Assembly: GCA_963706325.1 (NCBI GenBank)
Contig: CAVPLT010000005.1
Coordinates: 1 to 64,000, forward strand
Length of the DNA stretch: 64,000 nt
Reading direction: 5' to 3'
DNA from: an uncultured Nitrospiraceae bacterium
Lineage (GTDB): Bacteria; Nitrospirota; Nitrospiria; Nitrospirales; Nitrospiraceae
Positions 37,495-56,480 of the stretch are shown here, in pieces. The notes under the pieces are model-generated. The model was not told the origin of the DNA. It did not search any database and saw only the letters and a program-made list of their open reading frames with translations. The translations under genes were made by a program, and so were the position numbers. The first letter of the stretch is position 1; the number at the start of each line of letters is the position of its first letter.

Positions 37495-37540
37495 CACGAG
37501 GGCGAGTGAGTCAGGCGCTTGATTGATTCACTCGCCCGTG
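37495..37540 (+). other. intergenic stem-loop between arc and dop
   Basis: gggcgagtgagtca (37500-13) pairs with tgattcactcgccc (37524-37). No U-tract follows. Confidence 0.6.
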
Positions 37541-37552
37541 GATGAAGTAGGC

Positions 37553-39073
37553 ATGCATCTCTTCGGCATAGAAACGGAATACGGGATCACCAGAGAGGAT
37601 CTCGATGCGGTCGATCCCGTCGAGGAGTCGATGGAGCTGGTGCGCGCCCATCTGACCGGCGATTTCGAACCTCGGTGGGACTATAGGGGTGAAGATCCGC
37701 ATGAGGATGCGCGCGGATTCCGCGTGTCCGGCCTGCAGCAAGACAAAGAAGAGGACGATTTCGCCAAGATCGATGCGCATCGACCGTTTTCGTTTCACGA
37801 GATGAAGAGCGATCTGGTCCTGCCGAACGGCGCGCGATTCTACAACGACCATACCCATCCCGAATATTCCACTCCCGAATGTCGCACGCTCAAAGACCTG
37901 TTGGCGCATGACCGGGCCGGGGAGCGCATCGTCCAGCGCGCAGCCGATCGCCGAAACCAGCGTCTCGGCGGGGCTCATGTGCAACTCTACAAGAACAATA
38001 CCGACTTTCACGGCCACAGTTATGGCTGTCATGACAATTACCTCGTGTCACGCTCATTGCCATTTCCGCAGCTGGTCAGCGGCCTCTTGCCGTTTTTGGT
38101 CAGCCGCCAGTTGCTGGCAGGAACCGGGAAGGTCGGAATGGAAGCGCAGGAGTCCGGTTTTGTGCCCGGGGCCTATCAACTCTCGCAACGTGCGGACTTC
38201 ATGGAAGCGGAATTGGGCGTCGATACGATGCACAATCGCCCGATCCTGAACACGCGCGATGAACCACATGCCGATCGGACCAAGTACCGGCGTCTGCATC
38301 TGATCCTGGGCGATGCCAACATGTGCGAGTATGCGACCGCCCTCAAGGTGGGAACGACCAGGCTCGTGTTGGACCTTCTCCAGCGCGAGGTCATGCCGAA
38401 TCTGGAGTTGGATCAACCGGTGGCCGCGATCAAACAACTCTCGCGGGATCCTGATCTCAAGACGACCGTGCGGTTGAAGGATGGCCGAACCATCTCCGGG
38501 CTGGGCATTCAAGAGGCGTACTGGAATGCTGCGAGCCGCTCTTGTAGCGGTGCCGATCCGGACGCTGATTGGGTCTTGCGAGAATGGGAGGAGACCCTTC
38601 GCCTGCTGAGCCAGGACCGTGCTCAGTTGGTCGGGAAGCTCGATTGGGTAACGAAACAGTGGTTGCTCGAAACCTTTGTGCGCGAAGAACGCCTTGCGTG
38701 GGATGATCCGTGGCTCACCAGCCTTGATTTGGAATATCATAATATGAGCCCCGACCGCGGATTGTTTCTTGGGCTGGAAGCCGAAGGGAAAACCTGGCGC
38801 ATGACAACCGAGAGTGATATCACCCAGGCCCTCTCTGCCGGTCCCTCGGATACCCGCGGGGGGCTGCGAGGATTATGCGTCAGACGATTCCCGGAGCAGA
38901 TCACCACTATGCAGTGGGAACGTATTCAATTCTCCGGAGGGCTGCGCGCGCGAACGCTGGAGATGGGGGATCTTTTCGATCCCGATGACGTGCAGGCCTG
39001 TGCCGCCTTGTTCGAAACAGCCGCCGCTCCTGCCGATGCCCTGGCCGCGTGGTCGAGACGAAAGGAAATCTAA
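37553..39073 (+). CDS. dop: Dop-like deamidase/deconjugase (PafA2 family)
   Basis: FGIETEYG, NGARFYNDHTHPEYSTPEC, SYGCHDNY, NTRDEPHAD...RRLH. Confidence 0.85.
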   Translation: MHLFGIETEYGITREDLDAVDPVEESMELVRAHLTGDFEPRWDYRGEDPHEDARGFRVSGLQQDKEEDDFAKIDAHRPFSFHEMKSDLVLPNGARFYNDHTHPEYSTPECRTLKDLLAHDRAGERIVQRAADRRNQRLGGAHVQLYKNNTDFHGHSYGCHDNYLVSRSLPFPQLVSGLLPFLVSRQLLAGTGKVGMEAQESGFVPGAYQLSQRADFMEAELGVDTMHNRPILNTRDEPHADRTKYRRLHLILGDANMCEYATALKVGTTRLVLDLLQREVMPNLELDQPVAAIKQLSRDPDLKTTVRLKDGRTISGLGIQEAYWNAASRSCSGADPDADWVLREWEETLRLLSQDRAQLVGKLDWVTKQWLLETFVREERLAWDDPWLTSLDLEYHNMSPDRGLFLGLEAEGKTWRMTTESDITQALSAGPSDTRGGLRGLCVRRFPEQITTMQWERIQFSGGLRARTLEMGDLFDPDDVQACAALFETAAAPADALAAWSRRKEI

Positions 39074-39075
39074 GG

Positions 39076-39267
39076 ATGCGATATATGATGATGCCGGAAC
39101 GTCGTGAAGCCCCGGGCGATCCCATGCCGAAACCGAGCCCATCTGAGGAAGGCGGCGGACCACGTCGGCCCGAAACGGGTTCGCCGGATAAGGATAATCT
39201 TCTGAAGCGAATGCGGAAGGTCGATCCCAAGCAGGCGGAGCGTTACCGGCAGCGAACGGGTGAGTGA
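39076..39267 (+). CDS. ubact: ubiquitin-like protein UBact
   Basis: 63-aa disordered protein ending LLKRMRKVDPKQAERYRQRTGE, between dop and prcB. Confidence 0.9.
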   Translation: MRYMMMPERREAPGDPMPKPSPSEEGGGPRRPETGSPDKDNLLKRMRKVDPKQAERYRQRTGE

Positions 39268-39325
39268 GACTGGCCAGCGGGACGACGTCCGTGTGTGCGC
39301 GGGCTGCGGCCTCAGAGGAAGGGAT

Positions 39326-39421
39326 AGGGAGCAGACGGACTGCCCTTCTTGCTCGCAGAACGCGCACAATAACACCGTGCTCATCCGATGCGCGCAGTGA
39401 AGGACAGTCCGCCTGCTCCCT
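39326..39421. repeat. 96-bp palindromic (REP/MITE-like) element
   Basis: agggagcagacggactgcccttc (39326-48) and gaaggacagtccgcctgctccct (39399-421) are inverted repeats matching 21/23. Confidence 0.65.
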
Positions 39422-39483
39422 GGGGAAGAGTGTGCCTTGGAAATGAACAATGGCCAAGCGAATCGGAAAGGTGGAGTATAGCA

Positions 39484-40257
39484 ATGGGGATGCAAGGGGA
39501 CTTTTTCCAGCTTTTGAAAGAGCAAGGTTATCAGTTCGGCAATGCTGTCGCTGGCGCGGTTGGGATGGACATCCCCAATGCCACGACGATCCTGGCGCTC
39601 AAATATCGGGATGGCGTCCTTGTTGCCGGTGATCGTCGCGCTACGGCAGGTAATATGGTTATGTACGATCGGACCGATAAGGTTCTAGAGATCGATCGGC
39701 ACAGTGTCATGGCGATTGCGGGCGTGCCGGCCACCGCCTATGAAATGGTGCGTGTGCTCGAGCATTCGTTCAAATACTATCGACGCACGCAATTGCAGGA
39801 ATTGAGTTTTGAAGGAAAGCTTCGTGCCGTGTCCAAGCTGCTGAAGGAAAATGTGCCGGCGGCGCTGGCCGGGACTGGTGCAGTGGTGCCCGTGTTTGCA
39901 GGGTACGACCATGAGCAGGATGCGGCAAAGATTTACTTCTACGATATTTTGGGGGCTGAATTCGAAGCGGTGGAATATGCCGTATCCGGCTCCGGTTCCC
40001 CGACGATTCGAGGCATTCTCCACTATGTGAATACCTGGGGGCCGCAACCCTTGGCGATGCTTCCGGAGGAGGAGGCCACCATCCAAGCGCTTCGGCTGCT
40101 CACGAGTGCGGCGGAATTCGATTCGGCTACCGGCGGCGTGAATCGCGAACTGAATCTGTATCCGGTCGTCAAGCTCATCACGGCGGCGGGTGTTCAGACT
40201 ATTGCAGGTGAAAATTTGAAACGAATGTATGAGGCGGAAGTGCTTCGGGGCGCGTAG
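39484..40257 (+). CDS. prcB: 20S proteasome beta subunit
   Basis: Propeptide then A-TTILAL (Thr1), AGDRRATAG, GSGS, DSATGG. Confidence 0.9.
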   Translation: MGMQGDFFQLLKEQGYQFGNAVAGAVGMDIPNATTILALKYRDGVLVAGDRRATAGNMVMYDRTDKVLEIDRHSVMAIAGVPATAYEMVRVLEHSFKYYRRTQLQELSFEGKLRAVSKLLKENVPAALAGTGAVVPVFAGYDHEQDAAKIYFYDILGAEFEAVEYAVSGSGSPTIRGILHYVNTWGPQPLAMLPEEEATIQALRLLTSAAEFDSATGGVNRELNLYPVVKLITAAGVQTIAGENLKRMYEAEVLRGA

Positions 40258-40319
40258 CCAACCGTCTCCAAGGGATTTCAAGGCAGGATTACCTAGTCAT
40301 ATGCAGAGGGTGACACGTT

Positions 40320-41156
40320 ATGTATGAGGAACCATATCGGTGGGTCGAAGCGGTCGGCAATCGACGGCAATACCTGGACGAGCAATTTACGAAGGGTGCG
40401 CCGGTCGTCGCGTTGGCCTATGCCGATGGCATTGTGATGCTCACCGTCAGTCGCGGCACGCCAAAGCTCTACGAGATCTACGACCGCATCGCTCTCGGCG
40501 GTATGGGGCATCCGGCCGATCTGGAAAAGTTGCGGTTCTCCCTGCTCGAAATGGCGCATGTGGAGGGATTTAATCGTTCGCCATCCGATGTCACTGGTGC
40601 GCGATTGATGAAGTACGGATTGGCTCCCACCATCAAGCAGGCCTTCGAAGAGATTTATAAAGCGCCCTTTATTGCCAAGATCCTGCTGGCCGAATTGGGT
40701 GCCAAGGCCGAGCGCGATCTGTTTTTGACCATCAACTATGATGGAAACTTTGAGGAAACCCGGCGCTGGGCCGCGCTGGGAGCGACACCTGCCGTTCAAT
40801 CAAGGATGGGTCGCTACCTGGAATCTCAACCGGGACTTGCGCAGGCTACGTTATCACAGGCTGTCGATGCTGCTCTTTCTGCTTGGGCGGTGGGCTCGTT
40901 AGCCCAAATTTCAGGGGAGGCCACCGACGGGGAGTCAACCGCTGTGCCTGCTTCGGCGGAACAGTCCGACGAGGTGGCTGTGATACCGGATAGAGCCGTG
41001 CTGTTGGGACATGTGCGACAGACCGTCGGAGAGAAGTCTTTGGAATGTATTCTGTTGGAGCGCAATGGGCCAGGGTCATCGAAATATCGCGCCCTCCGTT
41101 CCGACGAACTCGGCGCTCTCCTTCCTTCGGCGATGAAGACTTCCAGCGCGACCTAA
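40320..41156 (+). CDS. prcA: 20S proteasome alpha subunit
   Basis: G.PVVAL...KLYEIYDRIA, typical of bacterial PrcA. Operon position fits. Confidence 0.85.
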   Translation: MYEEPYRWVEAVGNRRQYLDEQFTKGAPVVALAYADGIVMLTVSRGTPKLYEIYDRIALGGMGHPADLEKLRFSLLEMAHVEGFNRSPSDVTGARLMKYGLAPTIKQAFEEIYKAPFIAKILLAELGAKAERDLFLTINYDGNFEETRRWAALGATPAVQSRMGRYLESQPGLAQATLSQAVDAALSAWAVGSLAQISGEATDGESTAVPASAEQSDEVAVIPDRAVLLGHVRQTVGEKSLECILLERNGPGSSKYRALRSDELGALLPSAMKTSSAT

Positions 41157-41157
41157 T

Positions 41158-42648
41158 ATGCTCAATCGTATTTTTGGGCTTGAAACAGAATATGGCCTGT
41201 TGGTGAATCAGGATCGTCCTGAGTATTCACCCTCGCGGGTGGCCCAACGCATACGCGACCACATCTTTCATGTCGATCGGCGCGGAGTGATGGATCTTCA
41301 TCATCGAGGGCACGATGAGCCGCCTGGTAACGGCGGATTCTTGACAAACGCCGGTCGCATCTATATCGACATGGGGCACTTGGAGTACGCGTCGCCGGAA
41401 TGTACGACGCTGGCAGACCTGGTCGCTTCGGACCGTGCGGGAGATCAAATTATCCAGAATACGGTGACCGCATTGGGCCTGGAAGCCTCCGTCTCGATCA
41501 TCAAAAACAATATCGATCACGAAACTGATGCGACGTTCGGCTCGCACGAAAATTACCTGGTCACTCGACAATTTCCGTTTTCCCGGCGAGGGCTCGGCCC
41601 GCTGGTCACGTTCTTGGTCACGCGGCAAGTATTTACGGGATCCGGGCGGATCGGCTGCGCGAGTGATCCCAACGAATGGGTGCAGGTCGGAGGGCTTATC
41701 TTGCATCGGCCGGGGCTGCGGGATGCCCAGGATCGATCCATCGTGCCGTTCCAAATCTCCCAACGGGCTGACTATATCGTCAACGACTTTTTCGAATGGG
41801 TGCAGCATAACCGGGCGATCGTCAATACGCGAGACGAACCGTTGGCTGATCCCAATCAGTACCGCCGAATCCACCTCCTGTGCGGGGATTCCAATATGGC
41901 TGAATACGCCACGGCCCTCAAAATGGGAACCACCGGGCTCGTGTTGCAATTGATTGAGGCCGGGCAGGCGCCGCGAGGTTTGGGGATCGACGAACCGGTG
42001 GAGGCTCTCCAGGATATTTCACGGGATCCGGATCGTCAGTGGATCGTGCGATTGGAGTCGGGGCAATCGATCTCCGCGATTGATGTTCAAGAACAATTTC
42101 TCGCCGCGGCGCAGCGCTATTGCAAGGGGCAGGACGAAGAGACCGATTGGGTACTGGAGCAATGGGAAGCCGTGCTGGTGGATCTGCGGGGCGACTATGC
42201 GAAGCTGGTGGGCCGAATCGATTGGGCCTCGAAATTATGGCTTTTGGAGACCTATCGTGAGGCGGAGCAGGTTGGGTGGGATGATCCCATGCTGAAGAGC
42301 CTTGATTTGGAATATCACAATCTTCATCCCGCGCGAGGACTGTGTTATGGCTTGGAAGATGAGGGACGCGGTCCTCGATTGACCACCGACAAGGGCGTCC
42401 GTTTGGCGCAAGACAATCCGCCTCGTAACACGCGAGCCTTCGGTCGAGGTGAGCTGGTCCGGCATTTGTTGGGCCATGGCACCTCGGAAACTCCAGGCGA
42501 TGAAGTCGTGGAGGCCGACGATCAGTTGGCCTGCCACTATATTATCAACTGGTCGAATTTCAAAGTGCGGGGCACGTCGCCATTCTTTATGGCGGACCCG
42601 TTCAAAACGTACGTGACGGAAGTTCGCGACCATCTTGCCGGTCGCTAG
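41158..42648 (+). CDS. pafA: PafA-like Pup/UBact-protein ligase
   Basis: RIFGLETEYG, FLTNAGRIYIDMGHLEYASPEC, GSHENY, NTRDEP, TRAFGRG, C-terminal DPF. Confidence 0.85.
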   Translation: MLNRIFGLETEYGLLVNQDRPEYSPSRVAQRIRDHIFHVDRRGVMDLHHRGHDEPPGNGGFLTNAGRIYIDMGHLEYASPECTTLADLVASDRAGDQIIQNTVTALGLEASVSIIKNNIDHETDATFGSHENYLVTRQFPFSRRGLGPLVTFLVTRQVFTGSGRIGCASDPNEWVQVGGLILHRPGLRDAQDRSIVPFQISQRADYIVNDFFEWVQHNRAIVNTRDEPLADPNQYRRIHLLCGDSNMAEYATALKMGTTGLVLQLIEAGQAPRGLGIDEPVEALQDISRDPDRQWIVRLESGQSISAIDVQEQFLAAAQRYCKGQDEETDWVLEQWEAVLVDLRGDYAKLVGRIDWASKLWLLETYREAEQVGWDDPMLKSLDLEYHNLHPARGLCYGLEDEGRGPRLTTDKGVRLAQDNPPRNTRAFGRGELVRHLLGHGTSETPGDEVVEADDQLACHYIINWSNFKVRGTSPFFMADPFKTYVTEVRDHLAGR

Positions 42649-42656
42649 GTGCTTAC

Positions 42657-43577
42657 CTATCGTCTCATTCCGATCCGCTCGATAGCCCCCTTCGAGACGT
42701 CAAACGCAAACCGCAGTTGCACCGCGAAGTACTTCTGGACCAATCCGGAGCTGTCCAACGGGCGGTCTTCCTCCCGATAAAACGCGACTTCCATGTCCTT
42801 CCAACGAAGGGCAATGCCGATAATCCAGTCAAGTTCCGAGGGATTGAGGGTGTTGCTAGCATCGCGATCGGTAAAGAAATTCATGTCTCCATACAGCACC
42901 ACCTTGTTCTTATACAGATCCAGGTCGGCATGGGCCACGTAGCGGAAGAGCGCCCGTCCCGTATTGTTCGGGCGCGCGAAGTATTGGCTGTTGTAGAAGA
43001 GCCATCCTGCGCCGGCATAGGCCGTGAGATTTTGGTTGGGAAACGTCCGTCGCCACCATGTGGATTCTTGAACGGCTTGGAAGCGGGCCGTCACCAGCGC
43101 ATCGGCATAGGCCTGTTTGAGCCCGCTACGGTCGAGCGGAGCATCGCGTTCATATTGCAGGCGCCAATTGAACCGGTCGAGCACGCCGGTGAACGCAAAG
43201 GTGCCGTCCCATTCAGACAGTTCGATCCATCCGTTAGTGCGGTCCGAGAAAAAGTTCTGATCGGTGTAAAACGTGAGGTACTGCTTGTAAAGGTCCGTTT
43301 CCAAGTGCAGCATGTGCCGCATGCCGACAAGCCCTGAATTGTCCGGCCTGGCGGCGAACGACGGATTCTTTACAAAGGCGCCGGTAAGCAGGTACCCGCC
43401 GAATAGGGTTTCTTCTTCTTCACGACCCTCGCGGCCCGGTTCCTCCATGGAGGGGAGTGGACGTCCATATTTTTCCAGCCCAAATACCTGTCCAACCCCG
43501 AAAGTCGCAAAGAGAAGGCAGCCAGTCAACAGCGCGTGGATGAGTGGTTTTCGATTGCAGCGAGGGCCGGCCATCAT
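42657..43577 (-). CDS. hypothetical exported, possibly outer-membrane beta-barrel protein
   Basis: Signal peptide and aromatic-rich beta strands. The ERDAPLDRSGLKQ / EEDRPLDSSGLVQ pair suggests an internal repeat. ATGA-coupled to the upstream gene. Confidence 0.65.
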   Translation of the reverse strand: MMAGPRCNRKPLIHALLTGCLLFATFGVGQVFGLEKYGRPLPSMEEPGREGREEEETLFGGYLLTGAFVKNPSFAARPDNSGLVGMRHMLHLETDLYKQYLTFYTDQNFFSDRTNGWIELSEWDGTFAFTGVLDRFNWRLQYERDAPLDRSGLKQAYADALVTARFQAVQESTWWRRTFPNQNLTAYAGAGWLFYNSQYFARPNNTGRALFRYVAHADLDLYKNKVVLYGDMNFFTDRDASNTLNPSELDWIIGIALRWKDMEVAFYREEDRPLDSSGLVQKYFAVQLRFAFDVSKGAIERIGMRR

Positions 43578-43972
43578 TCTTGGCAGCGGGCGAAAATCTC
43601 TTCGCAGTCGTTCGAGGCATCTACCGAACTGGGTGCGAAACGGTACTGAACCAACTCGACTCGATTTTGTTGAAGCATCACCGTCGCCCAACAGCCATGA
43701 TGCGCTGTCGGACGGCTGCTCTTTGACGACACCATGGACTCTTCGAGCAGCGGCGCTTCACGGTAATAACGAAGCAGAGTGAACGTTTCATCGTGCCACT
43801 CGCGCAACGGCATGCCGGCGCAGGACAGAACCTCTTCTCTGCTTTGGCCCCGCAACGATTGCTGGTGGGGATATCCTTCCGTGCTAGGTTGGGCCTGGTG
43901 GCAGGCCAGCAGCCACAGCACCGCGATGACGATTAGCAGGCCCTGAACTACCCGAGAGGGAATAGCGTGCAT
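43574..43972 (-). CDS. hypothetical lipoprotein (SmpA/OmlA-like)
   Basis: Lipobox LLAC, GQSREEVLSCAGMP. Confidence 0.6.
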   Translation of the reverse strand: MHAIPSRVVQGLLIVIAVLWLLACHQAQPSTEGYPHQQSLRGQSREEVLSCAGMPLREWHDETFTLLRYYREAPLLEESMVSSKSSRPTAHHGCWATVMLQQNRVELVQYRFAPSSVDASNDCEEIFARCQE

Positions 43973-44302
43973 AGAGGTAACTTCCGGCAAAGAACGTACG
44001 GCACACTGGGTAGCATAGCCGTGATGTCAAAGCAACCCAGACGGTTGGACTCGGCCTGGGTGATTCTACGGGGCAGCTCGTATTTCTGGAGATCTGCATG
44101 CGTGAGCGTTGAGGCTCTCCTGCACCCAGGATGTGGACGTGGTTAGGCTGACCGTGTCGTCAGAATTGTGACAATCGTCATTGTTCTGACTAAGGGCCGC
44201 ATCATCGGCAACTATATCATTTGGTAGCGCAATCTTTGACCTGGTAGCAATCAACTAGGGTATTTCTTATAGGTGCCGATATATGTTTTTCTCGGTGAGG
44301 TG

Positions 44303-44330
44303 TTGACAAATGCGTTCATTTCCCTAGAAT
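44303..44330 (+). promoter_or_regulatory. sigma70-type promoter
   Basis: TTGACA-N16-TAGAAT. Confidence 0.65.
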
Positions 44331-44569
44331 AAGCTGCGAATACGATCAAGGTAACAGTCAGCTTTTGGCCATATCTGAGGCCGTGCGTGCCGCTTAGTCC
44401 CTCCCTGTCCTATCATCGACATCAGCCTATATCATCTGGAACTGTTCATGCGCTTGCAAGAGCGCAGCCTCGTTTTGGACTCGAAGCCTGGGTAGGCCTT
44501 TGTGATGCCAAGACTGCGCGTTACCACCACGTTGTAAGACCACGGCGAGCAATTTTACAGGAGGAATGC

Positions 44570-47302
44570 ATGTCTAATGATATGGCGATCAGTTGCGAGA
44601 GTGGGTTTGCCGTCGATGCGCTTGAGGAAGTCCGCCCTGCCGCTCTCATACCTGAGCGGAGAAAAACCTCCGAGGTTTGGTCGTTGACCATTGAGGAACG
44701 ACGAGCCTCGCGTCGCTGCCAGGTCCACCTCCCGGCAATATTGCACAACGCAGATGGTCGTCGGAGCGGAGTCGCCAAGAGTATCAGTTTCGGAGGCGTG
44801 TCCTTACATTTCTCCGGGGACGTTCTGGCCCTGCTCAACCAACATATCAGACTGGGGTTTAGTTCCAACGCCGATGAGCTCGACAGTCTTGGAGTGGTGT
44901 GCGGCCTCCGGACATTCGGGAATGGATTTCCGTTCGGCGGGACCGATGCCGAGATCAGTTTGGCCGTTCAATTTGTGCGTCTCAGCCCCGGTGATGAGCA
45001 GGTGATAGCGTCGTTGTTAGCTGAAAAGCACATTGCATCAGGCGGTCTGTGTATCAATGCTGCGCTGGTCTCACAAGAGCATGAAGAAATACTCCTCGAT
45101 GCCGGGACTCGTTCGCCGGTCGTTACTCGCAACTCTCAAGCGTGGTTGGGCGGGGGAGGCGGGGGACCTCGTCAAGAACGACGGCGGCATCGGCGGATTG
45201 CGGTGGGAGTGACGACCCAGGTGCGTCTTCGAAATAGAACCGGTGATCAATGCCTGCCTGGTGCGTTGATGAGAGATTTATCCTCGAACGGGGCCTGCGT
45301 CTATCTGCCGGCTGGAGAAGTCCTGATTGGATCGGAATTGTTTCTGCAATGGACAAGTCTGGCCGGCGGGCCTCAGAATTCGACGGTCGTATCGATATCT
45401 GCTGCGGCCTGTTCTGTGGTGGGTACAGTCGTATGGACGCAGGTGGACCGGCCAGACACGATGCCTGGTGTGCCAGGAGTCGGCCTCCGTGGGATGCTGG
45501 CCGGCCTGCGTTTTCATTCGCTTGAGAAGGGGGCGATGGAGGTCATCGAGCAGTTTCTCATACAGGTACGAGAGGGGACTACGGAGAGCGGGCTGGAGCA
45601 GCCATCGGTGATCAGTGAATTTTCGGAATGCTTTCGGTCGTCCGGATTCCGTATCGTGCTCTGTCACGATCGCCCGCTATCCGAAGTGTCGGATGATGCG
45701 CCGATCGTGGTGTTAGCTCCAGGGTATGGGGAGAGCAAGCGAGATTATGTGCCGCTGGCCTACTATCTCGCGGACAACGGTTTTCATGTCGTACGCTATG
45801 ACAATGTGAACCATGTCGGAGAAAGCGACGGAACCGTGACGCAGTTTCGGTTGCAGGATATGGAACTGGACCTAGCGGCCGTGCTGCAACACGTCGGCGA
45901 CCGATGGCCCGGTCGTTCTCTCGGTCTGGTGGCCACCAGTTTGGCCGGTCGCGTTGCTCTCAAAGTCACCGCGGGGACATCTCATGTGAAGTTGCTGGTG
46001 TTGATCAATGGGATTATGGATGTCCGGCACACCCTTCAGGCCGTGCATCAAGAAGATCTCATTGGCGAGCACCTGGCGGGCATGCGCAAGGGCGTGGTCA
46101 ACATTCTCGGTCTGACTATCGATGCGGATCGTTGGTTGGCACATGCTGTTCAGGGGAATTATGCGGATCTGGCCACGACACAGCGCGATGCCGAACGCCT
46201 GCGGACTCCTATCGTGCTGTTTCACGCCGAGCATGACGCGTGGGTGGACCCTGCGTCTATTGCAACGGTGGAGGCGGCGGTTGGGCCGAATCTGCGCCAT
46301 TCATACGTCGTGTCGGGCGCGTTGCATCGCCTTCAAGAGAGTCCCCGAAAGGCCCGGACGGTCTATCGTCAGATTGCCGAGAGTTGCCAGGAAGAATTAT
46401 GGCCGGATCGTTCTTTCGTGAAGCTGGTTGAACCGTCGCATCGGCAGATAAGTATGCAAAACCGGGTGGAGCGCGAGCGAGGCAAGGCCAGGCGCCCGAT
46501 CGGGAAGTCGGATCACGTGGCCTTTTGGAAAGACTATCTGCAGAATTTTCAGACGATTCCGAATGTCGCCGACTTCTGGCGTCTTATGGATCATGTCTAT
46601 CGCTTGATGGGTGATTGTCACCAGGGTGAACGGATATTAGATGCGGGGTGTGGCAACGGAAACCTTGGCGTATTTCTTCAGCTCAACCAAGCGTTTCGCC
46701 AGCGCTTTGCCAGACGAGGCGACTTTCGCTCTCCTAAGTATGTCGGGCTCGATTTCGTGCCTGCTGCGTTGGCACAAGCGGCGGCGAACTTCCGGCAGGT
46801 GGGAGAGACATTGCAGGGGCAGTTTTATGAGGGGCTGCGAGCGTATGTACCGATGTCGATGAAGCTATGTCGGGCCGACTTGGAGTCGCCCTTGCCGTTT
46901 CCCGATAATAGTTTTGATCGGGTCGTGTGTAATTTGGTGATAGGATATGTGCGAGACCCGCTGTTTACTCTGCGGGAGTACCTCCGTGTGTTGGCCCCGC
47001 ATGGAAGACTCGTGCTCTCAAACTTGAAGCCCTATGCGGATCTTTCTGCCATTTATCGCAGCTTTGTGGATACGGCAAAGACGCCGGATCAGGTGGAGGA
47101 AGGACGTCGACTTCTCGACAACTCCGGGCGAATCAAAGAGCGCGAGGGTGAAGGCATTTTCAACTTTCTTCACCAATCTGAGTTGGAACAGCTGTTGCGG
47201 GCCGCAGGCGCCTCTCATCCGCGGGTCTACCCCACATTCGGAAACCAGGCGCTCATTGCCGTGGCGGAGAAGGGCCTTTCCAGCATGATGGTCGCCGCAT
47301 GA
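44570..47302 (+). CDS. PilZ-PilZ / LuxD-like acyl-thioesterase / class I SAM methyltransferase fusion
   Basis: RRASRR..SISFGG and RRRHRR..DLSSNG (PilZ). LAYYLADNGFHVVRYDNVNHVGESDG, ATSLAG, HDAW, GALH (LuxD-like). ILDAGCGNG, LPFPDNSFDRVV (methyltransferase). AGGAGG RBS before ATG 44570. Confidence 0.85.
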   Translation: MSNDMAISCESGFAVDALEEVRPAALIPERRKTSEVWSLTIEERRASRRCQVHLPAILHNADGRRSGVAKSISFGGVSLHFSGDVLALLNQHIRLGFSSNADELDSLGVVCGLRTFGNGFPFGGTDAEISLAVQFVRLSPGDEQVIASLLAEKHIASGGLCINAALVSQEHEEILLDAGTRSPVVTRNSQAWLGGGGGGPRQERRRHRRIAVGVTTQVRLRNRTGDQCLPGALMRDLSSNGACVYLPAGEVLIGSELFLQWTSLAGGPQNSTVVSISAAACSVVGTVVWTQVDRPDTMPGVPGVGLRGMLAGLRFHSLEKGAMEVIEQFLIQVREGTTESGLEQPSVISEFSECFRSSGFRIVLCHDRPLSEVSDDAPIVVLAPGYGESKRDYVPLAYYLADNGFHVVRYDNVNHVGESDGTVTQFRLQDMELDLAAVLQHVGDRWPGRSLGLVATSLAGRVALKVTAGTSHVKLLVLINGIMDVRHTLQAVHQEDLIGEHLAGMRKGVVNILGLTIDADRWLAHAVQGNYADLATTQRDAERLRTPIVLFHAEHDAWVDPASIATVEAAVGPNLRHSYVVSGALHRLQESPRKARTVYRQIAESCQEELWPDRSFVKLVEPSHRQISMQNRVERERGKARRPIGKSDHVAFWKDYLQNFQTIPNVADFWRLMDHVYRLMGDCHQGERILDAGCGNGNLGVFLQLNQAFRQRFARRGDFRSPKYVGLDFVPAALAQAAANFRQVGETLQGQFYEGLRAYVPMSMKLCRADLESPLPFPDNSFDRVVCNLVIGYVRDPLFTLREYLRVLAPHGRLVLSNLKPYADLSAIYRSFVDTAKTPDQVEEGRRLLDNSGRIKEREGEGIFNFLHQSELEQLLRAAGASHPRVYPTFGNQALIAVAEKGLSSMMVAA

Positions 47303-47335
47303 TCACATGAAACAGCGTATGCTAGAGTGCCTTAA

Positions 47336-50300
47336 ATGAAAGTTCTCGCCTTCAGCGCGCTGATCAATGCCTTGGCTGCGACAGGCCTCGGCGTGTTCGT
47401 CTATCTCCGCGATCCAACCGCCGCGCGCAATCGGATTTACGGGCTGTACTGTTTGAGCATTGCCATGTGGAGCGTGTTTTACTGCGGATGGCAGCTCACC
47501 GAATCAAAGGATCTCGCGCTCATTCTGCTGCGCCTGGTGATGGCCGGGGCCACGCTCATTCCTATTCTTTACTTTCATCACACCGTGACCTTTCTCGATA
47601 TCGCGACACGTCACACCAAGACGCTGAAAGTCGGCTATATCCTCGCCGCGGTTTTCTTGCTCCTCGATACCACGCCATGGTTTGTGGCAGGGGTCCATCC
47701 CGCGATGTCGTTCCCCTTCTGGCCGGTGCCAGGCCCCTTCTTTCACCCGTTCCTCCTCTATTTTATCTGGTACGTCGTCTATGCCACCTGTCTTGTCGGC
47801 GTGGCGCTTCGAGATGCCAACGGAATTCGGCGACATCAATACGCCTATATGTTGGCCGCCAGCATTATTGGCTATGCAGGTGGGGCGACAAATTTCCCGC
47901 TCTGGTATGGAGTGCCGCTACTGCCCTACGGGACGGTTCTCATTACGATGTATACGGCGCTGATGGCGTATACGATCGTTCGTTATCGGCTGATGAATAT
48001 CAGTGTGGTGCTGAACAAGGGCCTCGGCTATGCCATTGTGTTGGCCATTATTGTGGTGGCGACTTCAATCGGGGCGGTTCTCAGTCATCGTGCCACCGGA
48101 CACTCGACGCCCCCTTTACTTGCCGGCACACTTTTCCTGATTTGCGCCTTATGGGTACTCAGCAACAATCCCCGGTCGACGGCGAATATCCTGTTCAGCG
48201 GCGTCTGCGGCGCAGCCTGTTTTTGGTTGTTCGGTTGCTTCATGTTGTTCTCGGCGTCTCACGAAGATGAGGCGCACTTTTGGATGCAGGTCATCTATAT
48301 CGGCATTGCACTCTTGCCCGCGTTGACCTATCACTTTGCGCAGAGCCTTACCGGATGGGCCTCCCACGACCGCCTGATCACCTGGAACTATGCCCTTGGC
48401 GGTGTATTTGCAGGACTAGTGTCCACTTCCTACTTATTCGACGGCCACTACATATATTACTGGGGGCGATACCCCAAGGCTGGAGTCCTCCATCCCGCGT
48501 TAGTTTTGTATGTGGTGGCAGGCGGGTGCCTGACTCTTTACCGTCTCTATCAGGGGTACCGTCTGCACGTCCGCTCGTCTCCGCTGTTGGGGGCACAATT
48601 GAAATATACCCTGGCAGCTCTCGCGCTTGGGTTCATGTCCTCTTTCGACTTTCTGCAAAATTACGGCATGGGTTTCTATCCCGTAGGTTACCTGCTCGCG
48701 GGTTTATCGGTCACCGTCGTCGCCTATGCCATTGCTCGCTACGAATTGATGGATGTGTCATTTGTTCCGACCCGCCCCAAAGTGATGCTGTCCATCAAGC
48801 TCATGGGGCTGATTCCGGCCTACATGATGATCCTGCTGGTCATTCGTATTTTTACCGGCACGTTTCACTACTTTTTGGCCGGGGTGCTGTTTGGGTTGTT
48901 CGTCATTGTATCAAGCGGGTTGGCCAACCTTCAGAAAGGCGTGGAGCGGGCCATTGGACAAACGCTGTTTCGGGAGCGCTATGACGCCTACGATACCCTA
49001 GTGCAGTTTTCCAAGTCGCTTGTGGCGATTCTTGAATTGAAGTCTCTCACGAAAGAGATCGTTCAAACGCTGGCGCGAGTGATGAACATCAAGACGGCCT
49101 CGGTGTACGTGCTGGACAAGGAGCAGGGGATCTATAGCTTGACGGCGTCGTATGGGTTTGGATCCCGTGATTCTCAGGTGCCCCCGATCAAGATGGAGAG
49201 CGAATTCCCCAAGGCATTGTTGCGAACGGAAACGGCCCTTGTTCGAGAGGAGATCGAATACGATAAGGCGGATGCTGACCACGTAAGGCTGCTCAATACG
49301 TTGCAAGGGTTGGAGTCAGAAGTCTGCATTCCGTTGATCAGCAAGGAGCGTCTCGTCGGGTTTTGCAACCTGGGGCGTCGGTCCAATCAGGGCATGTACT
49401 CGACTGAGGAACTGGGACTTCTCAAAACCCTGGCGCAACATGCGGCTATCGCGATCGACAATGCCTTGCTCTACGAAGACTTGCGTCGATCGCAACTGCT
49501 GATGCGACGAACCGATCGGCTGCGGTCGCTCGAAACCATGGCCGGTGGGTTTGCGCATGAGATTCGCAATCCCTTGACCTCGATCAAGACATTTGTCCAG
49601 TTGGCGCCTGAGCGACGGGACGATGTGGAATTCATGGAGCAATTTAGCCAGGTGGTGTGTGAAGACGTTGAGCGAATCGAACGGCTCGTTCATGAAATTT
49701 TGGACTATGCGCGGTACATGACTCCAAAGCTTACACAGGAAAGTCTCAACGACGTGGTGTCCTCATGCCTATATTTTATTGAGGTCAAGGCGAGCAGCAA
49801 AGCCATCACGATTCAGAAAGATCTGGCTGCCGATCTCCCTTATGTGAAGTTGGATCGACAACAAATTAAACAGGTCCTGCTGAATCTCTTCATCAATGCC
49901 ATGGAAGCAATCGGCGGTGAGCAAGCAGGCCGGCTGGTTGTCCGAACGCGAAATTTGGTCAGGCCGGCCGATGATCCTTGGGTTCAGATTGAAGTGGAAG
50001 ATAGTGGGCCGGGAATCGAGCCAGGCGATCTCGACCATATCTTCGATCCGTTTTATACGACGAAGCACGAGAGCGGGGAGCGCGAAGGAACGGGGCTTGG
50101 TCTGACCATTGCGCATCAGATTGTTCAAGAGCACGGAGGCTATCTCGAAGTCACCAGTGAAGTCGGCCACGGCACAAAATTCATGGTCAATCTTCCGGTC
50201 AATCCACCAGTTGCGGAATGGCATGCCGCACAGCCAGCCTACGAAGAGGGGCGTAAACTGGTAGGAGCGTTTCTCGCAAGACCCCACCAGGGGTTGGAAG

Positions 50301-50341
50301 AGCAATTCAACAAGCCATCCCCCGTAATCAAGGCCAGCTAG
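47336..50341 (+). CDS. sensor histidine kinase with duplicated 7TM-type membrane domain, GAF, HisKA and HATPase
   Basis: Two similar membrane modules, GAF (CIPL..KERLVG..NLG), AHEIRNPL, QVLLNLFINA, DSGPGI, IFDPFYTTK, GTGLGL. Confidence 0.9.
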   Translation: MKVLAFSALINALAATGLGVFVYLRDPTAARNRIYGLYCLSIAMWSVFYCGWQLTESKDLALILLRLVMAGATLIPILYFHHTVTFLDIATRHTKTLKVGYILAAVFLLLDTTPWFVAGVHPAMSFPFWPVPGPFFHPFLLYFIWYVVYATCLVGVALRDANGIRRHQYAYMLAASIIGYAGGATNFPLWYGVPLLPYGTVLITMYTALMAYTIVRYRLMNISVVLNKGLGYAIVLAIIVVATSIGAVLSHRATGHSTPPLLAGTLFLICALWVLSNNPRSTANILFSGVCGAACFWLFGCFMLFSASHEDEAHFWMQVIYIGIALLPALTYHFAQSLTGWASHDRLITWNYALGGVFAGLVSTSYLFDGHYIYYWGRYPKAGVLHPALVLYVVAGGCLTLYRLYQGYRLHVRSSPLLGAQLKYTLAALALGFMSSFDFLQNYGMGFYPVGYLLAGLSVTVVAYAIARYELMDVSFVPTRPKVMLSIKLMGLIPAYMMILLVIRIFTGTFHYFLAGVLFGLFVIVSSGLANLQKGVERAIGQTLFRERYDAYDTLVQFSKSLVAILELKSLTKEIVQTLARVMNIKTASVYVLDKEQGIYSLTASYGFGSRDSQVPPIKMESEFPKALLRTETALVREEIEYDKADADHVRLLNTLQGLESEVCIPLISKERLVGFCNLGRRSNQGMYSTEELGLLKTLAQHAAIAIDNALLYEDLRRSQLLMRRTDRLRSLETMAGGFAHEIRNPLTSIKTFVQLAPERRDDVEFMEQFSQVVCEDVERIERLVHEILDYARYMTPKLTQESLNDVVSSCLYFIEVKASSKAITIQKDLAADLPYVKLDRQQIKQVLLNLFINAMEAIGGEQAGRLVVRTRNLVRPADDPWVQIEVEDSGPGIEPGDLDHIFDPFYTTKHESGEREGTGLGLTIAHQIVQEHGGYLEVTSEVGHGTKFMVNLPVNPPVAEWHAAQPAYEEGRKLVGAFLARPHQGLEEQFNKPSPVIKAS

Positions 50342-50428
50342 ACGACGCGCATAACCGCCATCTCGACCCCTTTGTCCTGGGGAAAACGCTGGGTGTGGTG
50401 TGTCATATTCCGCAGCAGTTGCGCAATC

Positions 50429-51460
50429 TTATCTCCCCGACGGAGACAATCCGAGAGCTCGTGTTCGACTTTCTATTGCGCTGGAAAGCAGAGACACAAT
50501 TCTATTTTCGGCCCAAAACCGATCCTCTCCTGGGCGACCTTTTTGAAGAAATCCACAATGCCCGCCGTACCGCGATAGTATCGTCGTGATGTTCGGATTG
50601 CACCTGACCGCCGGTATGTCGAATATGGAGACGGGAATGAAGGGATCATCCTGCGCGGTCATCACCACTGTGGGAACAGCAATGTTGTGCAGTACGTGAC
50701 GGGCTCCAGCACGATCATAGTAATCGGCCACATTGGCATACCCTCCGTTCCGGGCAGTGTAACAGGCATCGAACTGAGTGATGGTCTTGATCGCCCTCAG
50801 TGGGGTCAGGTCCCATTCGTTCGGAAAGAGTTTTGCCTTTCGTCTCATTCGAGCCTTGAGGGCGGAGAGGAAGTGATAATGATAAAGCCAATTTTCGGGC
50901 TGTTCCAAGGCAGCGACGCAGCGTGTCAGATCAATGTTCGGACTGACTGCCACCACGCCCGCCAATGCCGGCTCAGACCCGCCCATTTCACCCGCGGCCT
51001 TTAGAACAAGATTCCCGCCCATCGAATAGCCCACGAGCCAGATGTTAACCAGCCCTTCCCTTGCGGCGAGTTCACGGACAATCGTTCGATAGTCGCTGCT
51101 GAGACCGCTGTTATAGAGCGTGGGTGTAAGGTGGTCGGTGCCTCCGCAAGTACGCTGATTCATCCGTATGACGTTGAAGCCTGCTCTGTAGGCTTTAGAC
51201 GTAATTCCGCGCATGTAGTGAGAGTCTGCGCATCCTTCTAATCCGTGGACTAGCAGGATGGTCGGCGAGGCCCTGGGGTTGTCTTGCCAATGGCAGAATC
51301 CCAAGAGCTGGGTGTCTTCTTCTACGGTGAAGAGGCGCACGCTTGATGGGATACGCCGCCTAGAATGGTTGCGGGGCCAATACCGAGGCACCAGCGTCAT
51401 GAGATGTGGGTTGCGAAGCAGGAGAGGGGGAACGAAGTCATTCATCAGGTTCATTCCCAT
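50429..51460 (-). CDS. YheT-family alpha/beta hydrolase (esterase)
   Basis: NPHLMT, HGLEG, GYSMGG, AQDDPF, GGHCGF. Confidence 0.88.
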   Translation of the reverse strand: MGMNLMNDFVPPLLLRNPHLMTLVPRYWPRNHSRRRIPSSVRLFTVEEDTQLLGFCHWQDNPRASPTILLVHGLEGCADSHYMRGITSKAYRAGFNVIRMNQRTCGGTDHLTPTLYNSGLSSDYRTIVRELAAREGLVNIWLVGYSMGGNLVLKAAGEMGGSEPALAGVVAVSPNIDLTRCVAALEQPENWLYHYHFLSALKARMRRKAKLFPNEWDLTPLRAIKTITQFDACYTARNGGYANVADYYDRAGARHVLHNIAVPTVVMTAQDDPFIPVSIFDIPAVRCNPNITTILSRYGGHCGFLQKGRPGEDRFWAENRIVSLLSSAIESRTRALGLSPSGR

Positions 51461-54118: not shown

Positions 54119-55350
54119 TGACGGTGGCCCCATACTGAGACGGTTCTTAACCAGAGTAGACGGCCTCTTCGACGATCGGTTGTCGCTGACGTTGTGCGAC
54201 ACACTCACGTGGGGTCAGGTGCCCAAGCGAGCTGTGAGGCCGACGCTGATTGTAGTCCACGCGCCAGGCTTCGATAATGGCCTGGGCCTCGGCCAGCGAA
54301 GCGAACTGGTGCACGTTCAAACACTCGTCTCGTAGGCGCCCGTTACACGATTCAATAAAGGCGTTTTTCACGGGTTTGCCCGGTCGAATGAAGTCCAACT
54401 GCACACCGCGCCGATAGGCCCAATCCTCCCAGGCTCGCGATTGAAATTCCGTCCCATGATCGACCGTGATCGAGCGAGGCACCGCTGGTATGTCCAGCAC
54501 ACGATCCAGCACCTGACCGACCGTCTGTCCCGTCATCCGAAACCCTGCCTCTAGTAGGGGACTGTGCCGACTCCAATTATCCACGACCGTCAAGATCCGA
54601 AACGGCCGCCCATCGGCCAGCGTATCATGGACAAAATCCATGCTCCAGCGCTCGGTCGGGCCCACCGGGACTGGAGCCGGGCCTCGGTGCAATGCGATAT
54701 GTTTTCGTCTCCGCACCCGCATCCGTAGCTGTAATCCATCGAGGCGGTAGAGCCGCCGGACGCGTGTGCGATTCACCGGCCAGCCCTCGCGACGCCGTAA
54801 CACCCCGATGCGCATGGAGCCAAATCGAGGTCGGGCATGGGCCAGATCGCGAATGCGCAACCGTCATGCGGACTGAGCCTTAGCCCGACGCCGGCGATAC
54901 CAAGAGGCTCGGCCGAATTGCGCCAACCGACAGGCCCGCAGGCAACTGACGCGGAAGGTATCTTGAAACCAGCCAGCCAGTTCTCGACGGCGTGCGGGCC
55001 TTAGACTTTTTTTCGCAGGGCCTCCGACAGCATATGTTTATCGAGCGAGAGGTCTGCCACTAGCCGTTTGAGTCGGGCGTTTTCCTCTTCCACCTGGCGC
55101 AACCGACGGAGCTCGCTCACGCCCAGATGCGCATACTTCTTTTTCCAGGTGTAGCAGGTGGCCTCGCTGACGCCGAGCTGCCGACAGAGGTCGCCAGTCG
55201 GGGTCCCACTCTCGGCTTGCCGCATGGCATAAACGATCTGCTCTTCAGAGCATCGTGACCGCTTCATCGATCCACTCCTTTCGTCGAGGACCGCCGCAGC
55301 CGCCATGTTACTCTCGTTTTGATCTGCCGTCGCTTTCCGGGGAGACGTCA
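54119..55350 (-). mobile_element. IS3-family (IS407-like) insertion sequence, 1232 bp, degenerate
   Basis: Imperfect terminal IRs TGACGGTGGCCCCATACTGAGACGG / TGACGTCTCCCCGGAAAGCGACGG. Contains orfA and orfB. No target duplication seen. Confidence 0.85.
54147..55267 (-). pseudogene. IS3 transposase orfA/orfB with internal stop
   Basis: orfA (55001-55267, MKRSRCSEEQI) ends at an A7G -1 frameshift motif. orfB has WSMDF, DHGTEF and IESCNGRLRDE but an in-frame TGA at 54864-54866. Confidence 0.85.
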
Positions 55351-55351
55351 C

Positions 55352-55399
55352 AGGCTAGTACAGCACGGTCAGGAGGGTGCCTGCGTGCAGTTTATGTCT
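55352..55399 (+). pseudogene. internal relic of the same recombinase as 54002-54064
   Basis: RLVQHGQEGACVQFMS vs RLVKQPQESACVQFMF at ~62885-62933. Confidence 0.7.
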
Positions 55400-56480
55400 G
55401 TTCCTTCGATCAATATGCAAGCAGAGTAAACGGAAAACATACGTTGCCGCCGTGCGGGAGACCGCCAGACAAGGGTTAATGGCCCACGGCCACCTGTCGG
55501 CTATCGAGCGGTGGAAGTGCCGCCCCCTCAGCAATAAGGCATGAAAAAACAGTTGGAAGTGGAGGAAAGTGAAGTGGTCGTGGTCAATCGGATCCTTCGA
55601 TGGTACCTGCATGTAGATCGGGGCAAGAGCTTGACTTATATGGGGTAGCTGCCTGCTTGAATGAGCAGGGAATCCTTGTTCTGGGCCGTCGATGAAGCAA
55701 GGGCGCATCTGTGAGGTCCTTAACCAACCGCGCCTATATCAGGGAGCACTATTTCAATAAATACGAAAAGCGAGGCGGGGATGTTCGGAGAATGACGCCG
55801 CGTGCGGAATCGGTGTCGGTCAAAGTCTTGTCAATCGTAGCCGGCGATCTTCTTGGCCTTGAAAGAGAAGTTGCAGTCACGATCCCTTCAGCGTGTTGCG
55901 CCACGGGATGTCAATTGTCCTACGTTGCTCAGGAGGCTTCTCAAGTGTGGGGTTTGTGTGGCGGGGATGATGCTGGCAACGGGCAAAGGCGGAGAATATC
56001 GCTATGACGAATGTTCGAGCAGGATTCACAAGAGGAAGGACATCTGCACCAGCAAAAGACTTGCCGAGAGAGCTGGTTGACCGGCTGATCCTTTCATCCT
56101 TGGCTGATCGAGTCTTGACGCTCACACGAGTCCGCACCAGGTTGGAAGGGTTGAGGAAGGGTCTGAAGCGGTCGCAATCCGACCAGGAGGGCAACTTCAA
56201 ACAACTGACCATGGAAGTGGAACGTCTGCAGCCGAGCAGCAAACAGCTCTAGGAGCAGGGAAGAGAAGAGGTACAGCTCTTTACCAGGATTCCACGGGGG
56301 CGTTTGCCTGAAAAGGGTCGGATTTCAGCAAGAAGTATCTCAAGCCTCTCGTCGAGAAGACTCGGTACCTCGGCAAACAGCTGGTGCTGAAGGGCAGCTA
56401 TGCAGCGCTTGCCAGAATAGTAGGTGAGAAAAAGGACGCCCCACAGAGTGAAGTGCCCAGTTTCGGTCTAGGTTGGCTCC
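55400..56480 (+). pseudogene. fragmented large serine recombinase (second, distinct lineage)
   Basis: Across frames: FDQYASRVNGKHTL, KQLEVEESEVVVVNRI, LTNRAYI, LLKCGVC...YRYDECS, LPRELVDRLIL, GSYAALA...VPSFGLGWL. Confidence 0.75.

Follow-up and report, generated by a model that had tools for sequence, protein, structure and literature searches.

A LuxD-like hydrolase–methyltransferase fusion conserved with a HisKA_7TM sensor kinase: a candidate chemical signalling pair in Nitrospirota

Genes at the locus

We analysed a stretch of 64,000 nucleotides, here called the window, from an uncultured Nitrospiraceae bacterium (assembly GCA_963706325.1, contig CAVPLT010000005.1, positions 1 to 64,000, forward strand). 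It carries a cassette of two genes: one for a fusion of two PilZ domains, a LuxD-like hydrolase and a class I S-adenosylmethionine (SAM)-dependent methyltransferase, and one for a membrane sensor histidine kinase with two seven-transmembrane (7TM) units. The two genes are likely an undescribed chemical signalling circuit. Their features in the window are:

44570–47302, + strand: fusion gene, 910 amino acids, PilZ–PilZ–LuxD-like hydrolase–class I SAM methyltransferase, putative signal synthase
44690–45034, + strand: PilZ domain 1, with RxxxR kept and a second motif S-I-S-F-G-G that lacks D/N
45176–45562, + strand: PilZ domain 2, with RxxxR and D-L-S-S-N-G both kept in the source genome
45602–46459, + strand: LuxD-family alpha/beta hydrolase, triad Ser457 (45938), Asp556 (46235) and His586 (46325)
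46460–47284, + strand: class I SAM-dependent methyltransferase, motif I at 46640–46660
47336–50341, + strand: sensor histidine kinase gene, 1001 amino acids, 33 bp after the fusion stop
47363–48001, + strand: HisKA_7TM unit a
48116–48757, + strand: HisKA_7TM unit b
49034–49459, + strand: kinase GAF domain
49556, + strand: His741 of the kinase HisKA domain, followed by HATPase at 49853–50203

A preliminary description, made from the letters of this DNA alone, had proposed a PilZ–PilZ–hydrolase–methyltransferase fusion with a kinase 33 bp downstream of its stop, and this layout was borne out by the open reading frames and Pfam. Pfam placed PilZ in two stretches of the fusion, Acyl_transf_2/LuxD at residues 371–606 (E 1e-25) and a class I methyltransferase at 684–828. 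The LuxD family (PF02273) scored 90.6 bits, above its gathering cut-off of 20.3. Vibrio harveyi LuxD (1THT) was the best match of the hydrolase domain by sequence (E 8e-19) and the best by fold (Z 31.1, root-mean-square deviation 2.7, 280 aligned) in a search that used the whole fusion model and whose list of matches was filled by the hydrolase domain. The residues Ser457, Asp556 and His586 line up with the triad of LuxD, its Asp and His taken at their presumed numbering. In LuxD, acyl groups from acyl carrier protein (ACP) go onto Ser114, according to the accessible part of PMC6279958. An AlphaFold model of the fusion, made with 76 sequences (mean predicted local distance difference test score 77, predicted template modelling score 0.67), contained a pair of beta-rich PilZ-like domains, together with the hydrolase and a Rossmann-type domain.

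Two more specific identities were ruled out: a luciferase-type LuxD (NF052253; 87.4 bits against an equivalog cut-off of 420) and a BioH/BioC-type biotin enzyme (TIGR02072; 28.5 bits against a cut-off of 184.95, and 18th in rank among the 24 matches of the source genome). PF12147 Methyltransf_20 (YnbC-type) was not among the 12 Pfam families found on the fusion at E <= 0.1. Crotonase was not in the fusion's Pfam list, and by Pfam and fold the hydrolase domain falls in alpha/beta hydrolase families. The single match in a plasmid collection was an acyl transferase from an E. coli K-12 plasmid.

In the kinase, both HisKA_7TM units (PF16927) pass the cut-off of 28.6 bits, with 50.1 and 42.8 bits, and the H box is intact (His741). 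Units a and b are 28% identical; this duplicated sensor was absent from the preliminary description. The kinase is the sole PF16927 gene found in the source genome, and a sequence search gave no solved-structure relative of the 7TM unit.

Conservation of the fusion–kinase pair

The hydrolase part of the fusion had matches in 33 of 201 phylum genomes, belonging to 9 of 87 genera. We surveyed the best 80 of 160 confirmed fusion loci. Of the 65 with a full triad, 59 had a 7TM kinase within 3 kb downstream, five were cut by the contig end and one (L120) had no kinase. The other 15 loci (14 with a changed triad, 1 truncated) had a kinase in 4 cases and none in 4, and were cut in 7. The same cassette is found in a cultured species, N. 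defluvii (FP929003.1), its hydrolase domain being about 80% identical. By its named relatives, the window belongs to Nitrospira, close to N. defluvii.

Nine of 54 metagenome loci matched the hydrolase part: four were cut downstream, one was Nitrospira-like with a kinase, and four (L155–L158) were distant, as judged by their position in a quick tree. A 7TM gene lies directly downstream in all four distant loci, so that the pairing holds at 31–44% identity and among other neighbouring genes. The preliminary description had made co-conservation a test of its proposal. With these counts, the conclusion that fusion and kinase are a real conserved pair, beyond background synteny, is supported.

A profile search gave 671 cluster representatives at E <= 1e-30. 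Among the best 150 of these, most forms of 547–590 amino acids retain the triad and have no space for PilZ. Atlas clusters of 555 and 563 amino acids are commonest in Omnitrophota and Verrucomicrobiota, and one cluster includes an Omnitrophica record. Every full-length homologue examined, bare forms included, has hydrolase and methyltransferase on one chain.

Two variants stood apart. In L058 (994–6965), a divergent PilZ–hydrolase–methyltransferase gene has an acyl-CoA dehydrogenase gene and a FadL/TodX gene beside it, and the 9 kb read contain no kinase. The fusions at L043:9436–13029 and L044:9585–13133 have an extra C-terminal domain of about 270 amino acids that has no Pfam match.

Sensor sequence and enzyme content

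In some cassettes another PilZ-fused enzyme gene is inserted before the kinase. It encodes a heme-oxygenase-like diiron enzyme (HDO) in L043, L117, L119, L121 and L125, an aldehyde dehydrogenase (ALDH) in L106 and L110, and a FabH-like enzyme in L111. Trp52 of unit a is present in 67/67 cassettes with the fusion alone and in 0/6 with an added enzyme (the cut loci L106 and L119 being left out), and a second unit a motif, ending in LWY or IWY, in 65/67 and 0/6, respectively. In a FastTree tree of the sensors from 31 hand-chosen loci, made without bootstrap, the fusion-only sensors, including those of the distant contigs, formed one 25-row clade (99) and four HDO sensors another (100). In the kinase-core tree, made in the same way, L111 and L125 grouped with L091 and L097 (97–99), although the sensors of L111 and L125 lie outside the fusion-only clade. 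The catalytic serine of the hydrolase was, by the quick tree, apparently lost several separate times, each time with the 7TM kinase missing or an extra enzyme present, except in L103. In the source genome, the HDO partner gene was not found with the query used, and the ALDH and FabH matches were 21–32% identical and located elsewhere. These observations support co-variation of the sensor with enzyme content, as expected of a synthase–receptor pair; hitchhiking of neighbouring genes could, less probably, give rise to them too.

The second 7TM unit behaves differently from the first. It forms its own clade across two-unit kinases irrespective of the enzyme type, which suggests that unit b binds a second ligand that these kinases share.

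When the search was reversed, a profile of unit a had matches in 51 of 201 phylum genomes. Each of the 13 best places was beside a LuxD–methyltransferase fusion, a result that is partly circular because some of those sensors built the profile. As a further sample we took 14 of the 21 first-unit places ranked 14–36: thirteen had a same-strand enzyme gene directly upstream and one was cut upstream. The 13 enzymes were 3-hydroxy-3-methylglutaryl-CoA (HMG-CoA)-reductase-like (4), methyltransferases (3, one near a ketoacyl synthase), haloacid dehalogenase (HAD) hydrolases (2, one by likeness only), an HDO, an ALDH, an AMP-ligase with radical SAM and a NAD_binding_4 reductase, and a weakly matching NAD-binding dehydrogenase. 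Most of them act on acyl thioesters, aldehydes or acids. Pfam PilZ was present in 3 of these 13 loci and a FadL/TodX neighbour in 2; in all, FadL/TodX channel genes were seen in four related loci, including L058 and L157.

The HMG-CoA-reductase-like genes directly 5′ of related 7TM kinases are at L212:5885–7714, L213:4878–6587, L218:4674–6044 and L222:4311–6278, and one of these loci has both Pfam PilZ and a FadL neighbour. In family f2, a second kinase with a fusion-type sensor (L209:6321–8534, L210:2915–5134) is remote from the cassette, follows a HAD hydrolase gene and is possibly an orphan receptor.

PilZ domains as an input

The preliminary description had placed the enzyme under cyclic di-GMP (c-di-GMP) control. 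The complete motifs of PilZ domain 2 in the window agree with this, and the incomplete second motif of PilZ domain 1, which that description did not mention, does not. Among 76 fusion homologues, 33 keep one complete PilZ motif pair (RxxxR plus D/NxS/AxxG) and 28 are without RxxxR in either domain. In the first 21 rows, the motifs were complete in PilZ1 in none and in PilZ2 in 8 (18 if Thr is allowed). The PilZ domains are also less conserved than the enzyme domains: within the lineage (18 rows) their identity was 44–45%, against 81–85% for the enzyme domains. Many fusion forms carry PilZ, REC and PAS inputs on the enzyme, some carry START-like lipid-binding domains in place of PilZ, and the bare enzymes of 550–590 amino acids are too short for PilZ. 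Judged by these sequences, c-di-GMP gating would be an optional input at best.

The convergent YheT-like gene and the pafA block

50429–51460, − strand: YheT-like serine hydrolase, Ser146 in GYSMGG; a neighbour of pafA, outside the module
37523–42648: Pup-proteasome cluster
42657–43990, − strand: two genes, 344 and 138 amino acids, between pafA and the cassette in this lineage

A YheT-type serine hydrolase does converge on the kinase, as the preliminary description had it. Against PRK10985 it scored 175 bits over its full length, with a cut-off of 267, and is thus a relative rather than an equivalog. The role then proposed for it, quenching of the signal, did not hold up. In 16 same-genus loci, drawn from 24 genomes of the genus, fusion and kinase were together in all 16, and YheT converged on them in 15, the other being cut by the contig end. 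The Pup-proteasome block with pafA was present in 15 of the same 16 loci, so that the synteny of YheT there says nothing specific. In the family, 34 of 35 genomes have a YheT match, and in a sister family 12 of 14. It had no match in genome G218 or in three genomes of family f12, all cassette carriers, and in G164 it lies 3.4 Mb away from the cassette. Nine YheT loci from other genera were free of the cassette: in four YheT abuts pafA tail to tail, in two it is 0.6 and 2.7 kb from pafA, in one it abuts another gene of the pafA cluster, and two share no neighbour with the window. Among the 80 cassette loci YheT adjoins the cassette in 20, all carrying the block of this lineage. The quencher role is largely refuted by these comparisons, and YheT is a resident neighbour with no dedicated part in the module. 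Since the cassette and the two small genes lie between pafA and yheT in this lineage only, insertion is the simplest explanation.

The two small genes have no Pfam or NCBIfam match and were not seen at the pafA–yheT loci of other genera. In the Pup-proteasome cluster, pafA was confirmed by the scan (Pup_ligase); the other members we take, by likeness, to be dop-like, proteasome beta-like and alpha-like. Farther downstream, at 54147–56252, there are IS3-like transposase open reading frames (54147–54860 and 55001–55351) and a recombinase-like fragment, all named by eye.

A split operon and a paralogue without the triad

In other Nitrospirales the operon runs fusion, kinase, REC–sigma-54 activator, REC-HD. 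In the source genome the last two genes are on another contig, C4, behind a 1399-amino-acid paralogue of the fusion and a 427-amino-acid kinase:

G000:C4:292928–301283 (L031:4929–13284), − strand: paralogue, GAF kinase, sigma-54-type regulator, REC-HD
C4 294280–295692: the sigma-54-type regulator

The paralogue has the order REC–PAS–...–PilZ–PilZ–LuxD–methyltransferase and has lost Ser, Asp and His of the triad; the kinase beside it has GAF but no 7TM. The C4 activator is 72–74% identical to the regulators of three unsplit operons (next best 44–49%), and the surroundings of the phospho-His are nearly identical in the window kinase and the C4 kinase. From these two likenesses, the window kinase likely phosphorylates the C4 regulator in trans, together with the REC-HD(-GYP) protein. 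The C4 activator has the motif GSFTDA and the C4 REC-HD has GNP for GYP, and both outputs may therefore be altered in the source genome. GYP was present in 9 of 12 REC-HD proteins of relatives that were printed.

Of seven loci with the long paralogue that lacks the triad, six have a 7TM-less kinase alongside and one has no kinase. These long forms make a single clade in the quick tree and were counted as one event. They occur widely across the family, even where they are the only copy found in a genome, and are possibly pseudo-enzymes kept as a scaffold or as a c-di-GMP input.

Upstream region

44159–44190: tandem palindrome GTCA-N6-TGAC-N4-GTCA-N6-TGAC, candidate transcription-factor site, about 110 bp 5′ of the −35 box
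44303–44330, + strand: sigma-70-type promoter-like site TTGACA-16-TAGAAT, 11/12 consensus
44337–44569, + strand: conserved 233-nt leader of the fusion gene

The single promoter proposed before the fusion corresponds to the promoter-like site at 44303–44330. The site is close to consensus and is kept in 9 of 11 aligned upstream regions, while a scan found 8 such sites against 4.9 +/- 1.9 in shuffles, a count modestly above chance. Sigma-54 promoter matches numbered 14 in the window against 11.7 expected, none of them 5′ of the fusion. The ATG start with its upstream GGAGG aligns in 11/11 upstream regions. The tandem palindrome is the sole perfect copy in the genome. The 15 loci (of 80) that have it all belong to this lineage, and it could also serve the divergent gene. 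In most relatives the leader has a CCTCCCG stretch able to pair with the ribosome-binding site; the pairing is weaker in the source genome. A consensus fold of 17 leaders had two-sided changes in 6 of 37 pairs with a weak covariation term, and no Rfam family, riboswitches included, matched the leader near gathering score.

Proposed mechanism and alternatives

That enzyme and sensor are linked in some way is very probable. The mechanism that we propose for the link is about as probable as all its alternatives together. The LuxD-like domain would unload acyl-ACP through an acyl intermediate on Ser457, the fatty acid would be released, and the methyltransferase would then cap it as a methyl ester. 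The ester could cross membranes, act between cells and bind unit a, the first 7TM unit of the kinase, and phosphate from His741 would pass to the C4 regulators. In lineages with intact motifs, HD-GYP and PilZ could close a c-di-GMP feedback loop. Acyl-ACP is suggested as the substrate by the kinship with LuxD. Carboxyl methylation is suggested by the fusion alone, as the methyltransferase matches no characterised family; one of its matches in the PDB is LahSB, presumably a carboxyl methyltransferase. The methyl acceptor is the weakest step.

Several observations weigh against this mechanism. Several esterases and lipases are close behind LuxD in the fold search (Z 27–29). The methyltransferase is below every NCBIfam family cut-off, and its best PDB matches are generic or mixed. 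Its SAM motif is retained in cassettes with a dead hydrolase and an additional enzyme, so that it may not depend on the product of the LuxD-like domain. The triad is intact in L120, which has no kinase, and dead in L103, where the sensor is of the fusion type and no added enzyme is in view. The six added-enzyme cases are not independent, four being of one enzyme type, and the added gene touches the 5′ (sensor) end of the kinase gene, so that both could be acquired in a single recombination. The trees, whether quick or made with FastTree, have no bootstrap. The count of enzymes upstream of related sensors has no background control, and the two HAD hydrolases among the 13 may be ordinary neighbours. 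There is no export or FadL gene in the cassette of the window.

A wider form of the proposed mechanism is tentative, and we hold it to be somewhat less probable than the mechanism itself. HisKA_7TM would be a receptor family for self-made acyl-derived signals, and Nitrospirota, and probably the Planctomycetes–Verrucomicrobia–Chlamydiae group, would swap an enzyme head and a 7TM sensor on a fixed chassis of kinase, sigma-54 regulator and HD-GYP, producing lineage dialects. The enzyme heads would be LuxD–methyltransferase, HDO, ALDH, FabH-like, HMG-CoA-reductase-like, and acyl-AMP ligase plus reductase. The window would carry the methyl-ester dialect, with its second unit hearing another signal.

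It is unlikely, though the best of the alternatives, that the pair is a synthase and its receptor with a free acid or another acyl product as the ligand, the methyltransferase either inactivating the signal or methylating the kinase or another protein for adaptation. The intact methyltransferase motif beside a dead hydrolase and an added HDO, ALDH or FabH-like gene agrees with this, as do other types of methyltransferase, stand-alone and PilZ-fused, that also precede such kinases, and the matches of 26 methyltransferase domains to generic families only. The constant joining of hydrolase and methyltransferase on one chain, even in bare forms, suits channelling instead. The sequence matches are moreover mostly to small-molecule methyltransferases, and CheR was not among the families listed for the domain.

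We consider it somewhat less likely again that the pair is an internal gauge, in which the enzyme probes the acyl-ACP or SAM pool and the resulting product is detected by the kinase in the membrane of the same cell. The cassette of the window has no transporter, the sensor is embedded in the membrane, and many forms of the enzyme carry fused PilZ, REC and PAS inputs. The outer-membrane FadL/TodX channels of four related loci argue otherwise, and the many interchangeable enzyme–sensor types fit signal dialects better than a gauge of a single pool.

LuxI and CqsA use SAM as an amine or aminocarboxypropyl donor and make acyl-amides or aminoketones. Similar chemistry here is improbable: an acyl-enzyme intermediate and a SAM-binding domain would share one chain, and LuxD is both acyl-transferase and hydrolase in the part of its literature that was accessible, but the SAM-binding domain matches methyltransferase families only and no autoinducer-synthase family. 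Equally hard to sustain is that fusion and kinase are mere neighbours without a ligand link and co-vary by hitchhiking. Adjacent genes travel together, and L103 and L120 break the pattern; against this, the pairing persists in the distant contigs at their low identity and with different neighbours, and the 7TM part is gone beside the dead paralogue. Least tenable is a module of three genes in which YheT is a dedicated quencher and c-di-GMP gating is obligatory, for the convergence of YheT in 15/16 same-genus loci and the two kept motifs of PilZ2 are outweighed by the equally syntenic pafA block, by the position of YheT at or near pafA in 6 of 9 cassette-free loci, by its distance or absence in G164, G218 and f12, and by the 28 of 76 fusions without RxxxR.

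Significance and comparison with known systems

Literature searches, including Nitrospira with LuxD, LuxD with PilZ and methyltransferase, and PilZ with HMG-CoA reductase and kinase, returned no description of the system; supplements and most subscription journals lie outside such searches. The accessible part of the lipocone paper (PMC12419801) does not describe it. A search for HisKA_7TM by name returned work on archaeal kinases, and PMC5847659, in the part available, lists it merely as a sensor domain, with no ligand given. The split operon with a dead paralogue, the co-variation of sensor and enzyme, and the refutation of YheT as a part are new here.

If the proposed mechanism is true, the HisKA_7TM domain would gain its first candidate class of ligand. 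The mechanism can be tested directly: the bare enzymes of 550–590 amino acids can be expressed, dead and swapped variants are natural controls, and the cultured N. defluvii carries the cassette. Nitrospira oxidise nitrite in wastewater plants, in soils and in water. For their signalling, the accessible text of PMC8553950 has N-acyl-homoserine lactones only. A second, lipid-based Nitrospira circuit would then be added, tied to c-di-GMP and sigma-54.

The hydrolase domain resembles Vibrio harveyi LuxD (1THT, PF02273), a myristoyl-ACP thioesterase/acyltransferase, which is its best match in sequence and fold with the triad aligned. Unlike LuxD, it is fused to a methyltransferase, and no luxCE or luxAB is adjacent in the loci read. 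In order and size the enzyme part is like a bifunctional alpha/beta hydrolase–class I methyltransferase of Pseudomonadota (PF12146 + PF12147; hydrolase then methyltransferase, about 580 amino acids; 0.91 among Atlas look-alikes), the E. coli member of which we take to be YnbC. The window protein differs in matching PF02273 and not PF12147.

RpfF, the synthase that makes the diffusible signal factor (DSF) of Xanthomonas, is a crotonase-fold enzyme. The window enzyme, in contrast, has the LuxD alpha/beta hydrolase fold with methyltransferase and PilZ domains, and it did not come out as an RpfF-type enzyme. The DSF system (RpfF, RpfC, RpfG) combines an acyl-ACP thioesterase, a membrane kinase and a c-di-GMP-lowering HD-GYP-type regulator, according to the accessible parts of PMC13220807 and PMC13660987. 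The unsplit operons of the window's relatives end in REC-HD with HD-GYP motifs; GYP is read in 9 of 12 REC-HD proteins of relatives, and the C4 REC-HD of the source genome has GNP.

The phc quorum-sensing system of Ralstonia has a methyltransferase (PhcB) and a sensor kinase (PhcS) for the methyl ester of 3-hydroxypalmitic or 3-hydroxymyristic acid (3-OH PAME / 3-OH MAME), and the window likewise has a methyltransferase gene and then a sensor kinase. This likeness is one of gene order and description. None of the 52 shorter matches was named PhcB or PhcS, in a search not dedicated to these sequences, and the accessible part of PMC9102662 has no domain data for PhcB. In Ralstonia, synthase and receptor co-vary with the signal type, as given in the accessible part of PMC7694676, and enzyme and sensor co-vary in the window's relatives too. 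The window system differs from phc in that its methyltransferase shares a chain with a LuxD-type hydrolase and PilZ domains, its receptor is HisKA_7TM–GAF, and its output, compared with phc as given, is a sigma-54-type regulator with REC-HD(-GYP).

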